Below, in pieces: positions 48,508-52,140 of a stretch of DNA of 64,000 nucleotides. Under the pieces are notes generated by a model. That model had not been told where the DNA came from. It worked only from the letters and a program-made list of their open reading frames with translations, and did no database searches. Source of the stretch: Shigella phage ESh36. The stretch lies in the sequence record ON528746. One strand, 5' to 3'. Position 1 is the first letter of the stretch; each line of letters begins with the position of its first letter. Position numbers and translations under genes: made by a program.

Positions 48508-48786
48508 TCAAAATGTAATTTCTAACCAATCACCATCACGCTGATCACTATTAACTTTAAAGCTGAATCCTTCTTTTCTCAGCCAATCACCAATTTCTTC
48601 AGTAATCAATTTATCGCGAGCAGTACAATAATAACTAAAATATGTTTTACCTTGTTCAGCTGCTTTATTAGCAAGTTCCGAAAAATCTTTAATAAAACAC
48701 TCTAGCTTAAACTGTTTACTTTTAAGTGCTTTTTCACGTAATTGATTAGCAAAAGATTCATTTTCATAAAAATCATACTGTTCCAT
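48508..48786 (-). CDS. hypothetical protein (T4 24.2 position)
   Basis: 92 aa ORF downstream of rnlB on the same strand. Confidence 0.5.
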   Translation of the reverse strand: MEQYDFYENESFANQLREKALKSKQFKLECFIKDFSELANKAAEQGKTYFSYYCTARDKLITEEIGDWLRKEGFSFKVNSDQRDGDWLEITF

Positions 48787-48988
48787 TTTTCACCTTTTTA
48801 TTAATATGTCTTTTTCTATAGACAACTTTTTCTCGAGTCTCAAATTTATTCTTAGCAGTCATAGCTCGAGCCCATAATACAGCCACTTCTTTTGCCTGTA
48901 AATTCAATTCACGAGCAATTTCAATGAATGACTTTCCAGACTCATGAAGAGTAAACACCACAACCTCAGTTCTCATAATCAATCTCAT
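48773..48988 (-). CDS. hypothetical small protein, possible HTH (T4 24.3 position)
   Basis: 71 aa; segment ESGKSFIEIARELNLQAKEV resembles a helix-turn-helix. Confidence 0.45.
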   Translation of the reverse strand: MRLIMRTEVVVFTLHESGKSFIEIARELNLQAKEVAVLWARAMTAKNKFETREKVVYRKRHINKKVKNGTV

Positions 48989-49057
48989 GTTATCGAGTTG
49001 GTGCCATTATATACATCATTTTCTGAGTGTGTTTTGTGTGCTTTCAAAATGAAGAAA

Positions 49058-49071
49058 GGGGCCGAAGCCCC
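49058..49071 (-). terminator. UUCG-tetraloop hairpin terminator after hoc
   Basis: Minus-strand GGGGC-UUCG-GCCCC followed by TTTCTTC. Confidence 0.5.
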
Positions 49072-49076
49072 TAAGA

Positions 49077-50783
49077 TTATGGATAGGTATAGATGATACC
49101 AGTTTCTAAAGCAGTTTTATGAATGATGTATCCATTACGCGATTCTTGGACATCAACTTCTGGATAGTCTTTCATCATCTTCTGAAGAGTGTAACGATGC
49201 AGGTAGTATTTACTATCTGGATCTTCAGTTTTCCAATCTTTACCTTCTTCAGTCATTTTTTGGATTTCATCCATAACCCACCAACCGCACCAGATATAAG
49301 CTGAAGTACGATGTGGAAGAGGATGAACATAAGGCAATTCACCTTCTGGTTCTGGAGCAACTTTATCAGTTACCTGAACTTGGCCTTCTGCTGTGATAGT
49401 TTTGCTATCATAATCAGTAGCGGTAACAGTTGCAGTAACTTCAATAGTTTGACTTCCAATAGATGATGTATCAACGGTGTATACATTAGTTGACCCTTCT
49501 ACAGGAGAAGAATCTTTCTTCCATGAGTATTCGATTTGTGCTTCTTCTGGAGCATCCGTAACATTAGCCGTAAATGTAGCCGAAGCATCTTGCTGAACGT
49601 TAATAGAAGGAGGAGTCAATGTAACCTGTGGATTCATTGTTTTCTTATTAACTGTCAATGATACTTCATTAGAAGTAACTTCCTTTTCATTGTAATTTTC
49701 TGCAGTTACTTGCGCTACACACTTAACTGTTTTAGCTCCAACTGTGGTAGGAGTATAGTTAAATGTAGTAGTAGTTTCTCCATCGACCAGAGAACCGTCA
49801 ACATACCACTGATACGTAGCAGACGCTCCTGGTGGCTGTGAAGCCAAGGCAGCAGTAAATTGAACTGGGGTTCCAATTACTCCGGCAGCAGGATTAGCAG
49901 GAGTTACGGCTAACGTAGTTGTCTGTGTCTTCTTATTAACTGTTAATGATACTTCATTAGAAGTAACTGTTTTTGCGTCATAATCTGTTGCTGTTACTTG
50001 CGCTACGCATTTAATTCTTTTTACTCCACTTGTAGTTGGAGTATAGCTAAATGTAGCAGAAGTCGCTTCACCAATTTGAGAATCATCTACATACCACTGA
50101 TACGTAGCAGATGCCCCATCAGGTTGAGAAGCTAAGGCAGCAGTAAATTCAACGGCTGTTCCAATCACTCCAGCTGGAGGACTATCAGGAGTTACTGCCA
50201 AGGTAGTCGTCTGCGTCTTTTTATTAACAGTCAGTGACACTTCATTAGAAGTAACGCTCAATGTATCGTAATCAGTCGCGGTTACTTGAGCTATACACTT
50301 GATTTTTTTAACTCCGCTTGTGGCAGGAGTGTAATTGAATGTAGCAGAAGTTGCTTCGTCTACAGGAGAACCGTCAACGTGCCATTGATACGTAGCGTTT
50401 GCACCTGATGGCTGTGAAGCTAAGGCAGCGGTAAATTCAATTGGAGTTCCAATCACTCCAGCATCAGGGCTACCAGGAGTTACAGCTAAAGTAGTTGTTT
50501 GTGTCTTATTTTGAACTGTGATAGTTGTACTAATTTCTGCTGTTTCAGGTTCAGATTCTGCAACTTGATTGGTTGCAACTACTTTAATAGTCTTTTGACC
50601 GGCAGGTCCTTTTAGTACATAACTAAAAGTTGCTGACGTTTCTTCCTGTGGAGCGTCGTCTACAGTCCAAGCATATGTAATAGGTCCATCTCCAGTTTGA
50701 CCACTGGGTGTAGCAGTAAACTGCTGAGTCTGATCTATAACTCCAGTAGGTGTTTTAGGAGTTATATCAACTGTAAAAGCCAT
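49077..50783 (-). CDS. hoc: highly immunogenic outer capsid protein Hoc with five Ig-like domains
   Basis: 568 aa; four N-terminal ~96-aa Ig-like repeats plus a fifth divergent one, then a C-terminal capsid-binding region (LPYVHPLPHRTSAYIWCGWWV...). Confidence 0.85.
   Translation of the reverse strand: MAFTVDITPKTPTGVIDQTQQFTATPSGQTGDGPITYAWTVDDAPQEETSATFSYVLKGPAGQKTIKVVATNQVAESEPETAEISTTITVQNKTQTTTLAVTPGSPDAGVIGTPIEFTAALASQPSGANATYQWHVDGSPVDEATSATFNYTPATSGVKKIKCIAQVTATDYDTLSVTSNEVSLTVNKKTQTTTLAVTPDSPPAGVIGTAVEFTAALASQPDGASATYQWYVDDSQIGEATSATFSYTPTTSGVKRIKCVAQVTATDYDAKTVTSNEVSLTVNKKTQTTTLAVTPANPAAGVIGTPVQFTAALASQPPGASATYQWYVDGSLVDGETTTTFNYTPTTVGAKTVKCVAQVTAENYNEKEVTSNEVSLTVNKKTMNPQVTLTPPSINVQQDASATFTANVTDAPEEAQIEYSWKKDSSPVEGSTNVYTVDTSSIGSQTIEVTATVTATDYDSKTITAEGQVQVTDKVAPEPEGELPYVHPLPHRTSAYIWCGWWVMDEIQKMTEEGKDWKTEDPDSKYYLHRYTLQKMMKDYPEVDVQESRNGYIIHKTALETGIIYTYP
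49635..50498 (-). repeat. three tandem ~288-bp near-identical direct repeats inside hoc
   Basis: Repeats each encode TTTLAVTP..PAGVIGT..EFTAALASQP..ATYQW.VDGS..ATSATF.YTP.TSGVK.IKC.AQVTATDYD..VTSNEVSLTVNKKTQ. Confidence 0.8.
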
Positions 50784-50792
50784 AAGTTATCC

Positions 50793-51473
50793 TTATTTTA
50801 ATGTTACGAAAGAAGAATTACGTGTTTCACGAATTAGAACTGATCCGTCGCGATTAATGTAATAAATTAAGCTAAATAAAGTTTGGTGTGCAGACGCATG
50901 TTCAAAACTAGTTGGGTGAGATTTCCAATCTGGAGTTTCAGCAATCCATTGGTAAATCCACCAAGGAACAGTGCAGAATCCTGGATTTTTTCCAATCAGC
51001 TGAAGATTTGGGCTAAAGTTTTCCGGAAGAGTAAATACGGACGGCTTTTCAGATTCAATAATCTCAGCTACAGCCTGCTCGAATTTTTCTTCAACAAAAG
51101 GAGTATCTTCAATCAAAACATCGGTATTTTCAGGAATTTTATCCGTTTCTACTACTTCAATTTTAATGTCAGATTTAACCGGAGAATCAATCAGAAGTGC
51201 TGCCTCTGGATTGACTTCTTCATCGTCATATTTTAATCCGTCTGCAGCATCAGCAGCATCAATTAAGTCTTTAATAGATAACCCATCAGTCTCTGGCATA
51301 GGTTCACTAGCGAGCTTCTGGAGGGCTTCTTCAATATCATTAACGATATTATCAAAAGATTTATTCTTTTTGACTTTTATACCAAACTGTTCAGCATATT
51401 CAGCTAATTTAGCTTTAGCTTCTTTATTATCATCAAGAGCCTTCAGCTCTGCAATATAATCTTTATCTATCAT
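50793..51473 (-). CDS. inh: inhibitor of prohead protease
   Basis: 226 aa, position between hoc and segD as in T4; assignment by length and synteny. Confidence 0.7.
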   Translation of the reverse strand: MIDKDYIAELKALDDNKEAKAKLAEYAEQFGIKVKKNKSFDNIVNDIEEALQKLASEPMPETDGLSIKDLIDAADAADGLKYDDEEVNPEAALLIDSPVKSDIKIEVVETDKIPENTDVLIEDTPFVEEKFEQAVAEIIESEKPSVFTLPENFSPNLQLIGKNPGFCTVPWWIYQWIAETPDWKSHPTSFEHASAHQTLFSLIYYINRDGSVLIRETRNSSFVTLK

Positions 51474-51522: not shown

Positions 51523-52140
51523 ATGTACCACTTTGTATATGAAACAACAAATCTAATAAATGGTAAAAAGTATATAGGAAAGCACTCTACTGACGACCTG
51601 AATGATGGCTACCTTGGTTCCGGTAAGGCAATTCAGCAGGCTATAAAGAAATATGGTGAAAACAATTTCTCTAGAAAAATACTAAAAGAGTTTAAAACTT
51701 CCGAAGAAGCGTACATGTATGAAGAAGAAATTATAACTCCTGAACTGATAAAAAGCAAAAATTATTATAATATGAAACCTGGTGGAATTGGTGGAATTGT
51801 TATGACTACAGAGGTTATAGCAAAGATGAAAGAATCTTCCGCTAAGAGATTTGAAAACTCACCGGGCACGGTATTAGGTACAACTTGTTACACTAATGGA
51901 ACTAAAAATATTTTTATTAAGCCTGGAGAACTTGTTCCAGAAGGATTTGTAAAAGGGATGGTTCATCCTAATAGAAAGTCCAGAAAAGGATGTAAAGTCA
52001 AACCGACTACAACAGGAACTTTTTGGGTCAATAATGGCGCAATAAATAAATTAATACAACCAGACGGTATTATTCCCGACGGATTTATTAAAGGTCGTCT
52101 CATGAAAAGAGATTCTAAAGGCAAATTTAGTAAGGCATAA
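51523..52140 (+). CDS. segD: GIY-YIG homing endonuclease (SegD-like)
   Basis: 205 aa; N-terminal GIY-YIG module YHFVYETTNLINGKKYIGKHS; between inh and uvsW as T4 segD is. Confidence 0.75.
   Translation: MYHFVYETTNLINGKKYIGKHSTDDLNDGYLGSGKAIQQAIKKYGENNFSRKILKEFKTSEEAYMYEEEIITPELIKSKNYYNMKPGGIGGIVMTTEVIAKMKESSAKRFENSPGTVLGTTCYTNGTKNIFIKPGELVPEGFVKGMVHPNRKSRKGCKVKPTTTGTFWVNNGAINKLIQPDGIIPDGFIKGRLMKRDSKGKFSKA

Follow-up and report, generated by a model that had tools for sequence, protein, structure and literature searches.

Introduction

The 'bacteriophage adherence to mucus' model rests on Hoc, a fibre of the T4 capsid; the protein is highly immunogenic and serves as the anchor in T4 display and vaccine platforms. 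[quoted passage not shown] The number of Ig-like domains varies among Hoc homologues and reaches 10 (PMC10385173). Among the distant homologues, the Hoc of Serratia phage Muldoon has 1174 aa and 10 Ig-like domains, that of PNJ-9 is devoid of domain 3, and that of Klebsiella phage PMBT63 has one extra Ig-like domain (PMC10385173, PMC11853027, PMC13435897). MUC2 binding by PNJ-9 Hoc requires three residues that lie at the end of domain 2 (S183, L184 and T185); this site is based on modelling and co-immunoprecipitation, in a Hoc whose gene is only about 65-70% DNA-identical to the hoc genes of T4 and PNJ-6 (PMC11853027).

Variable Ig-domain number in Hoc is already published, and the long Hoc form described below is already catalogued. 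Like the proteins of Muldoon, PNJ-9 and PMBT63, Hoc of Shigella phage ESh36 combines a conserved C-terminal capsid binder with a variable Ig-like string. Whereas in those three phages different domains were gained or lost, the T4-like phages of the genus Tequatrovirus present a copy-number series of one domain within one genus. The literature searched contained general statements on varying Ig-domain number; the copy number of domain 2 in Tequatrovirus Hoc was not specifically described there. Here we analyze the hoc locus in a 64,000-nt stretch of the ESh36 genome (record ON528746), referred to as the window.

The hoc gene and its surroundings

The open reading frame under study is a genuine and intact hoc gene of a Tequatrovirus phage, as an earlier note on this DNA had proposed. 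Its product matched PHROG 1149 ('Hoc-like head decoration') with an E-value of 2.8e-173 and, in a search of the PDB, T4 Hoc (5vf3, 8t1x) with an E-value of 9.4e-249. According to the open reading frames and PHROG matches compared with the T4 annotation, the T4 late-gene block is kept in the order 24, rnlB, 24.2, 24.3, hoc, inh, segE-like and uvsW, and T4 hoc (NP_049793.1) occupies the same locus between 24.3 and inh. The list of open reading frames and the T4 record also bear out the difference in length: 568 aa (61 kDa) in ESh36 against 376 aa (40 kDa) in T4. Both proteins are acidic (pI 4.5 against 4.7).

The coordinates of the gene, its signals and its domains are collected in Table 1. The terminator-like hairpin lies 5 nt past the hoc stop codon. 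The minus strand upstream of inh and hoc was searched for the late promoter TATAAATA and did not contain it; hence no promoter could be assigned to hoc.

Table 1. Features of the ESh36 hoc locus in window coordinates
Feature	Position	Strand	Basis or remark
hoc CDS	49077..50783	minus	single ORF, 568 codons plus TAA stop
Shine-Dalgarno AAGGA	50790..50794	minus	6 nt 5' of hoc ATG; overlaps inh stop codon; read from sequence
Intrinsic terminator-like hairpin, AGGGGC-TTCG-GCCCCT plus T-rich tail	49046..49072	minus	sequence and terminator scan
Ig-like domain 1, residues 1-92	50508..50783	minus	T4 Hoc domain 1 orthologue by alignment; beta-sandwich, pLDDT 81-94
Domain-2 unit A, residues 93-188	50220..50507	minus	repeat finding; Pfam PKD
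Domain-2 unit B, residues 189-284	49932..50219	minus	repeat finding and DNA comparison
Domain-2 unit C, residues 285-380	49644..49931	minus	repeat finding and DNA comparison
Fifth Ig-like domain, residues 381-476	49356..49643	minus	T4 Hoc domain 3 orthologue
C-terminal capsid-binding domain, residues 477-568	49080..49355	minus	T4 Hoc 285-376 homologue

Three tandem copies of T4 domain 2

The extra length of the protein was accounted for by T4 domain 2 being present three times, as in-frame units of 288 bp (96 residues) at 49644-50507. Tandem Repeats Finder reported a 288-bp period repeated 3.1 times over 49638-50519 without indels (score 1016, 77% matches), and a separate repeat search likewise returned three copies spaced by exactly 288 bp. 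When Hoc was compared with itself, an offset of 96 residues gave 177 identities, against 27-61 at all other offsets between 80 and 119; self-similarity at this offset is far beyond chance. The in-frame repetition of one Ig module that the earlier note had put forward is supported, and the coordinates it gave for the repeat (49635-50498) describe this array in another valid register. The register used here runs from KTQ to VNK. The first 11 and last 12 residues are invariant in every unit. A tblastn search with a unit over the 64-kb window found no further copies outside hoc.

With T4 domain 2 present as three tandem units, the protein therefore reads D1-A-B-C-D3-capsid-binding domain. In agreement with the five Ig-like domains expected, AlphaFold predicted five beta-sandwiches over residues 1-475 with a pLDDT of about 83-95, and Pfam PKD matched three stretches of the product with 54.6 bits against a cut-off of 23.5. 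Pfam PKD_4 and Ig_2 also exceeded their own cut-offs, and Ig_3 and I-set matched residues 385-469 in the fifth domain. The pTM of 0.48 means that the model gives no reliable inter-domain geometry, and the C-terminal domain was modelled poorly (pLDDT <55). When the complete model was compared with PDB structures by Foldseek, the only matches were generic chains of the multi-domain Ig, cadherin and complement MG kinds, with E-values down to 5e-15 and low TM-scores. On the predicted model these matches confirm the fold class and nothing more specific; low TM-scores are expected of a flexible bead string.

The domains flanking the array are more divergent from the units than these are from each other. 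Domain 1 is ca. 45% identical to unit B over 69 aa, and for the fifth domain the identity is 36-41% over about 64 aa. The fifth domain aligns with T4 Hoc residues 189-284 and keeps the Asp equivalent to T4 D246. The capsid-binding C-terminus is strongly conserved: 90 of its 92 residues agree with T4 Hoc 285-376, T493/S and E520/D being the two exceptions, and the counterparts of T4 W306 and W310 are still tryptophan. Furthermore, PHROG 21694 matched this domain at residues 504-568 (E 1.8e-41).

Occurrence and copy number among relatives

The exact protein was already present in GenBank under URY11495.1 and URY16167.1 for Shigella phages ESh16 and ESh36, and a three-copy hoc occurs in at least 12 phages. 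The layout D1-A-B-C-D3-Cterm was found at 94.5-97.5% DNA identity in YUEEL01, TOPO13, OMNI12, ESh26, ESh34, KMB26, EC101, ECML-123-2, T4_ev151, UGKSEcP1 and UGKSEcP2. These eleven proteins of 568-570 aa do not differ in kind from those of ESh16 and ESh36. In the three-copy records the annotation of hoc is limited to 'capsid and scaffold protein' or 'Hoc-like head decoration'. Four of them state a country of origin: USA, South Korea, Australia and Slovakia.

Comparing domain counts among relatives, as the earlier note had advised, gave one, two, three or four domain-2 units, with hoc lengths of 1131, 1419, 1707 and 1995 bp. Roughly 650 Tequatrovirus records matched hoc. T4 has one unit, which is the commonest form. 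The 472-aa proteins of ime09, HP3, PP01 and phiD1 have two and the 664-aa proteins of slur03, slur08, slur14, vB_EcoM_FJ1 and Sfk20 have four, in each case with the same module at the same place between the same flanking domains. Among the best 120 cluster representatives, 81 had 376 aa, 29 had 472 aa and eight had 568-570 aa, and 664-aa members were placed in the same cluster. No array of five or more units occurred among the matches listed. The three-copy hoc is a minority allele of this known, variable protein and was found in ca. 2% of sequenced relatives.

Divergence and age of the units

In pairwise comparisons, units A, B and C shared 75.7-79.2% of their bases and 74-81% of their residues, and the longest exact repeated word within hoc was 24 nt. 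The earlier note had described the units as nearly identical; that part of its description does not agree with these values, whereas the ORF, the five domains, the 288-bp in-frame array, the divergent flanks and the conserved C-terminus all stood. The dS between units was 0.58-1.42, against 0.17-0.38 for domain 1, domain 3 and the C-terminal domain of this hoc compared with T4 hoc, a comparison that assumes similar rates and ignores recombination. The dN/dS between units was 0.09-0.29, and all three copies are under purifying selection.

Each unit has a counterpart at the same position in other phages. For the seven three-copy phages compared (ESh16, YUEEL01, OMNI12, ESh26, KMB26, UGKSEcP2 and T4_ev151) same-position units were 92-100% identical at the DNA level, the sole exception being unit 2 of T4_ev151 with 88.9%. 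Unit A was 100% identical to the first unit of ESh16, 92-95% to that of the other three-copy phages, and 94% to that of ime09. Unit B shared 96-100% of its DNA with unit 2 of ESh16, YUEEL01, KMB26, OMNI12, ESh26 and UGKSEcP2, and 90% with the single domain 2 of T4, including stretches of 97-100%. Unit C matched unit 3 in the remaining three-copy phages at 98-100% DNA identity, the second ime09 unit at 97% and the only vB_Eco_Geo unit at 93%.

Since the dS between units exceeds that to T4 hoc and since positional counterparts exist in other phages, we consider the duplication to be old. Our main reading, with a probability of about 0.85, is that the three domain-2 units of a genuine, intact hoc are an old paralogous series that has diverged to ca. 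77% DNA identity and has positional orthologues in other phages. Unit B may have entered from a different phage instead of diverging in place. A recent in-frame tandem duplication in this phage lineage, which would have left nearly identical units prone to expansion or collapse, is highly improbable: the exact 288-bp spacing without indels and the conserved unit ends would suit it, but near-identical DNA and a dS near zero would be expected, only 76-79% of bases are common to the units, and their dS is several times the divergence from T4 in the rest of hoc. The 92-100% same-position identity in the seven other phages, one unit apart, argues against it as well. We likewise see a negligible chance that the array is an assembly artefact, inflated from one or two units or collapsed from more. 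Tandem repeats are liable to misassembly and several related records are short-read assemblies marked UNVERIFIED, but units that differ at about one in four bases, with no exact repeat longer than 24 nt, allow reads to be placed uniquely, and the reading frame is intact with dN/dS below 0.3. Moreover, the 1707-bp three-copy architecture recurs in 13 GenBank records and in eight protein clusters at 90% identity (NCBI, ENA and Logan, metagenome included). Of the interpretation offered earlier, the identification of hoc, its Ig domains and the in-frame module repeat were retained, and the recent duplication and the serious assembly-collapse hazard were abandoned. The ESh36 hoc is real, intact and correctly assembled, and needs no special explanation.

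Mosaicism of the units

The order of the units varies among relatives. Units were assigned to A, B or C according to the highest identity, a crude procedure that gave A-B-C, A-C-B and A-C-C in three-copy proteins and A-B, A-C, B-B, B-C and C-C in two-copy proteins; since the units are mosaics, these architecture counts are approximate. When 164 other units were compared with those of ESh36 at 30 variable columns, 90% of their residues were states that also occur in ESh36. All four combinations were seen in 443 of 666 column pairs. The minimum number of recombination events was 19, a count that used protein columns of pooled paralogues and may be inflated by recurrent mutation. The single unit of vB_Eco_Geo is an A/C hybrid, that of T4 is mostly B-like, and the slur08 array consists of A, a B/C hybrid, B and C. 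Copy number would most likely shift via unequal homologous recombination at the conserved unit ends, by which roughly 30 polymorphic residue positions would also be shuffled among units.

The same mechanism would serve a different history, in which no ancestral duplication diverged in place, one- and two-copy genes are ancestral and the array was built by unequal recombination of single-copy alleles from co-infecting phages (a T4-like B, a Geo-like C and an A type). The 90% identity of unit B to the only domain 2 of T4, with its stretches of 97-100%, the 93% identity of unit C to the only unit of vB_Eco_Geo, the varying unit orders and the pervasive mosaicism are all in line with such an origin. 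However, the A-type unit stands alone in only two of 82 typed single-copy proteins (T4 counted) and is nearly always first in arrays, which an old array with later deletions fits at least equally well, and an A/C hybrid such as the vB_Eco_Geo unit is what a deletion inside an array would give. Both histories rely on one mechanism and are compatible with the present data; we regard construction from single-copy alleles as unlikely, and we retain the old paralogous series.

A broader and tentative proposal, which we hold to be somewhat doubtful, is that domain 2 of Tequatrovirus Hoc may be a recombination-driven variable cassette array, with a copy number of 1-4 and ca. 30 residues reshuffled in co-infection and kept by selection for glycan or bacterial-surface targets or for antibody escape. 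If this is true, a capsid adhesin would have a means of generating diversity at the population level. Such an array was not described for Tequatrovirus in the literature searched. The variable positions were not significantly enriched in loops of the predicted Ig fold (15 of 41 columns in loops and 15 of 55 in strands; p = 0.38), so no loop-targeted diversification is claimed. Judged by this test on a predicted fold, the inter-unit differences give no structural sign of targeting a binding surface.

Implications for the capsid fibre

Because the C-terminal domain is nearly identical to that of T4, we infer that it would place a single Hoc at the center of every gp23* hexamer, just as the T4 domain does. 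With two additional Ig domains the fibre would project roughly 27 nm, compared with about 18 nm in T4, and would carry two more copies of the domain-2 surface to which binding of mucin glycans and bacterial surfaces has been ascribed, which may increase reach and avidity. A longer and more multivalent adhesive fibre is plausible. For mucin-glycan binding by a BAM-type Ig adhesin the sequence offers leads only, namely the equivalent of T4 D246 and the SLT motif of the MUC2-binding site in PNJ-9 domain 2, which ends all three units here as well (residues 183-185, 279-281 and 375-377). The natural Hoc series, in which the number of domain-2 modules (1-4) is the only difference, is a ready reagent set suited to examining effects of fibre length and valency on mucus retention, bacterial surface binding, virion aggregation and immunogenicity.

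Domain architecture and genomic setting

Database matches and gene order bear out the earlier note's identification of the gene as hoc. The product matched PHROG 1149 ('Hoc-like head decoration', E 2.8e-173) and PDB chains of T4 Hoc (5vf3, 8t1x and others, E 9.4e-249), and the gene order of gp24 vertex protein, RnlB RNA ligase, 24.2, 24.3, hoc, inh, GIY-YIG homing endonuclease and helicase is that of the T4 annotation. The helicase lies in the uvsW position; its product is named 'DNA helicase' in ESh16 and uvsW in T4. The segE-position endonuclease gene is a presence/absence polymorphism adjoining hoc: it occurs in T4 and ESh16 and is absent from ime09 and vB_Eco_Geo (Geo), where inh is followed directly by uvsW. 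The small ORF that immediately follows hoc, the 24.3 homologue, is of variable length (71 aa here, 56 aa in T4, 67 aa in ime09). The T4 late-promoter core TATAAATA occurred 23 times in the 64-kb window against about 10 expected, a count reached in no shuffle; no minus-strand copy immediately precedes inh or hoc, and the hoc promoter was not located.

Features of the hoc region and position of the tandem units
Feature	Position	Strand	Remarks
hoc ORF	49077-50783	minus	uninterrupted, 568 residues
Shine-Dalgarno AAGGA	6 nt upstream of hoc ATG	minus	read in sequence
GC-rich hairpin with T-rich tail	49072-49046	minus	starts 5 nt past hoc stop; terminator scan
24.3 homologue	48773-48988	minus	71 aa
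GIY-YIG homing endonuclease gene	51523-52140	plus	T4 segE position, between inh and uvsW
Unit A	50220-50507	minus	residues 93-188; domain-2 copy
Unit B	49932-50219	minus	residues 189-284; domain-2 copy
Unit C	49644-49931	minus	residues 285-380; domain-2 copy

The proposed architecture of five Ig-like domains and a capsid-binding C-terminus was confirmed by structure prediction, Pfam, Foldseek and comparison with T4 Hoc. An AlphaFold2 model, for which 28 homologues were used, contained five beta-sandwich domains in residues 1-475 with block pLDDT values of about 83-95. The C-terminal domain was modeled poorly (pLDDT < 55), and the pTM of 0.48 makes the inter-domain geometry unreliable. Pfam PKD matched in three stretches (54.6 bits, cut-off 23.5), Ig_3 and I-set matched residues 385-469, and Foldseek matches of the model in the PDB were strings of Ig-like, cadherin-like and complement MG domains. 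In T4 Hoc the C-terminal domain attaches to the gp23* hexamer at its centre (PMC10385173). The last 92 residues of the window Hoc differ from T4 Hoc at two positions (T493/S, E520/D) and retain tryptophan at the positions of T4 W306 and W310. With a pI of 4.5 the protein is acidic like T4 Hoc.

The tandem array

At 49638-50519 Tandem Repeats Finder reported 3.1 copies of a 288-bp period (score 1016, 77% matches and no indels); in a second repeat search, three copies followed one another at intervals of exactly 288 bp, with 78-79% identity to the reference copy. Comparison of Hoc with itself yielded 177 identities at an offset of 96 residues and 27-61 at each other offset from 80 to 119. This signal and the 288-bp spacing show that the repeat is real, in frame and far above chance. 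Pairwise identity among the three copies (units A, B and C) is 75.7-79.2% in DNA and 74-81% in protein, and exact words that recur in the gene reach 24 nt at most. The in-frame 288-bp array described in the earlier note therefore stands, but its near-identity does not.

Alignment of the window Hoc with those of T4 and Geo (376 aa each), ime09 (472 aa) and ESh16 (568 aa) showed that all five proteins are collinear in the first Ig-like domain (D1), the last one (D3, orthologous to T4 domain 3) and the C-terminal domain. The whole length difference sits in T4 domain 2, which is present as a single unit in T4 and Geo, two units in ime09 and three in the window. A search of the 64-kb window found no further copies of the unit outside hoc. 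All five Ig domains of the window Hoc are detectably related to one another; identity is about 45% between D1 and unit B (69 aa) and 36-41% for the fifth domain (about 64 aa). This makes the domain-2 amplification the most recent step in an older duplication series.

Age of the duplication

The duplication had been proposed to be recent, which is contradicted by its divergence. The dS between units was 0.58 (A-C), 0.64 (B-C) and 1.42 (A-B), whereas dS between window and T4 hoc was 0.32 for D1, 0.38 for D3 and 0.17 for the C-terminal domain. Each unit is much nearer to a unit of another phage than to its own neighbours: unit A has 94% DNA identity to ime09 unit 1, unit C 97% to ime09 unit 2 and 93% to the sole unit of Geo, and unit B 90% to the sole unit of T4, rising to 97-100% in some 36-nt windows. 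Units 1, 2 and 3 of seven other three-copy phages (ESh16, YUEEL01, OMNI12, ESh26, KMB26, T4_ev151 and UGKSEcP2) were 92-100% identical to A, B and C, respectively, with the exception of T4_ev151 unit 2 (88.9%), and only 75-82% identical to the two non-corresponding units. Four of these seven records give a country (USA, South Korea, Australia, Slovakia). The dS values and the positional counterparts indicate that the duplication is old by comparison with the divergence among these phages. The dN/dS of 0.09-0.29 between units indicates that purifying selection holds all three.

The array had also been called an assembly-collapse hazard. With a difference at one base in four and no exact repeat longer than 24 nt, the units are not expected to collapse in ordinary assemblies. 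A hoc of 1707 or 1713 bp is present in 13 GenBank phage records from 12 phages, and the best 120 representatives of clusters at 90% identity include 8 whose Hocs are 568-570 aa long, with sources in NCBI, ENA and Logan assemblies. The exact window Hoc is deposited as URY11495.1 (Shigella phage ESh16) and URY16167.1 (ESh36), and is found in GenBank and UniRef under the names Hoc-like or highly immunogenic outer capsid protein. At the DNA level the window hoc matches those of ESh16 and ESh34 with 99.8% identity, and the surrounding 24-kb stretch matches the same two phages with 98.9% over 97% of its length. Of the earlier description, identity and architecture are retained; recency, near-identity and assembly risk are not.

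Copy number and mosaicism

Among 678 phage records matching hoc, sampling at even steps down the ranking gave 53 informative ones. One unit (hoc about 1131 bp) was present in 30, two (about 1419 bp) in 19, three (1707 bp) in two and four in two (slur08 and Sfk20). Hoc lengths in the best 120 cluster representatives were 376 aa (81), 472 aa (29), 568-570 aa (8), 439 aa (1) and 468 aa (1). The three-copy hoc is a minority allele, carried by roughly 2% of sequenced relatives. With the slur08 gene as query, a 1995-bp hoc encoding 664 aa, with four domain-2 units, was found in slur03/slur08/slur14 (the same genome), vB_EcoM_FJ1 and Sfk20. The window gene is therefore not the longest allele of the genus, and domain-2 copy number in Tequatrovirus ranges from one to at least four. 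The four slur08 units (L011:1501-3495) are A, a B/C hybrid, B and C.

Units were typed by the nearest window unit. Three-copy Hocs had the orders A-B-C, A-C-B and A-C-C, and two-copy Hocs A-B, A-C, B-B, B-C and C-C; the 81 single-copy units (82 with T4) were B-like (69), C-like (10) or A-like (2). Painting by diagnostic columns identified the majority of units as mosaics, including the sole Geo unit (A/C hybrid), slur08 unit 2 (B/C hybrid) and the T4 unit (B-like with C-like patches). The mosaic analysis covered 164 domain-2 units, 121 of them distinct, from other proteins of the 120 representatives (P0001-P0120). At the 30 columns varying in the window, 90% of their residues reuse a window state; across phages, roughly 30 polymorphic positions draw on a small shared set of states in many different combinations. 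All four combinations occurred in 443 of 666 informative column pairs, and the Hudson-Kaplan minimum was 19 recombination events within 96 residues, a value from protein columns of pooled paralogues that recurrent mutation may inflate. The first 11 and last 12 residues are invariant in every unit, providing short conserved stretches where unequal recombination could act. Unequal homologous recombination at these ends could add or remove whole units in frame.

Probable consequences for the capsid fibre

The near-T4 capsid-binding domain suggests one Hoc per gp23* hexamer, as in T4. The four domains of T4 Hoc form a 180-Angstrom fibre, and binding to the E. coli surface is attributed mainly to Ig domains 2 and 3 (PMC10385173). 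Two extra domains of similar size would give a fibre of roughly 27 nm if the string is linear. In the variant Hoc of PNJ-9, binding of MUC2 and fucose has been assigned to S183, L184 and T185, which close domain 2, and a change of T4 D246 alters mucin glycan binding (PMC11853027 and work cited there). The SLT motif is found at the end of all three window units (residues 183-185, 279-281 and 375-377), and the Asp equivalent to D246 is kept in the fifth domain. Given the T4-like capsid-binding domain, the five Ig domains and the published binding roles, the most likely consequence of the extra units would be a longer, more multivalent adhesive fibre. Positions varying between units were not significantly enriched in loops of the predicted fold (p = 0.38), which gives no structural pointer to functional specialisation.

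Relation to known Hoc proteins

Variation in Ig-domain number among Hoc homologues is already published. A survey of 650 homologues by Fokine et al. (2023) found up to 10 Ig-like domains (Serratia phage Muldoon) and great variability even among close T4 relatives (PMC10385173). The PNJ-9 Hoc lacks domain 3 (PMC11853027); PMBT63 Hoc has one extra domain, and its authors call the domain number widely variable (PMC13435897). The long Hoc is real and already known. Our literature search found no paper on the one-to-four domain-2 copy series in Tequatrovirus or on its mosaic shuffling, which are a modest addition in population genetics rather than a system of a new kind.

In five records hoc is split in two parts or has a span off by 1-2 nt (MZ501066, FriedrichMiescher; MZ234018; MZ234042; NC_019399, ACG-C40; LC348380, T2), with lengths of 1420, 1418, 1132 and 1117 bp. 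Frameshifted or split hoc is not rare among sequenced relatives, which fits a laboratory-dispensable gene or sequencing errors. T4-type hoc with 88-91% identity also occurs in MG010123 (Staphylococcus phage SAJK-IND, 32 kb) and PV654520 (Pseudomonas phage vB_PSGBLB0006), which are probably mislabelled or contaminated records.
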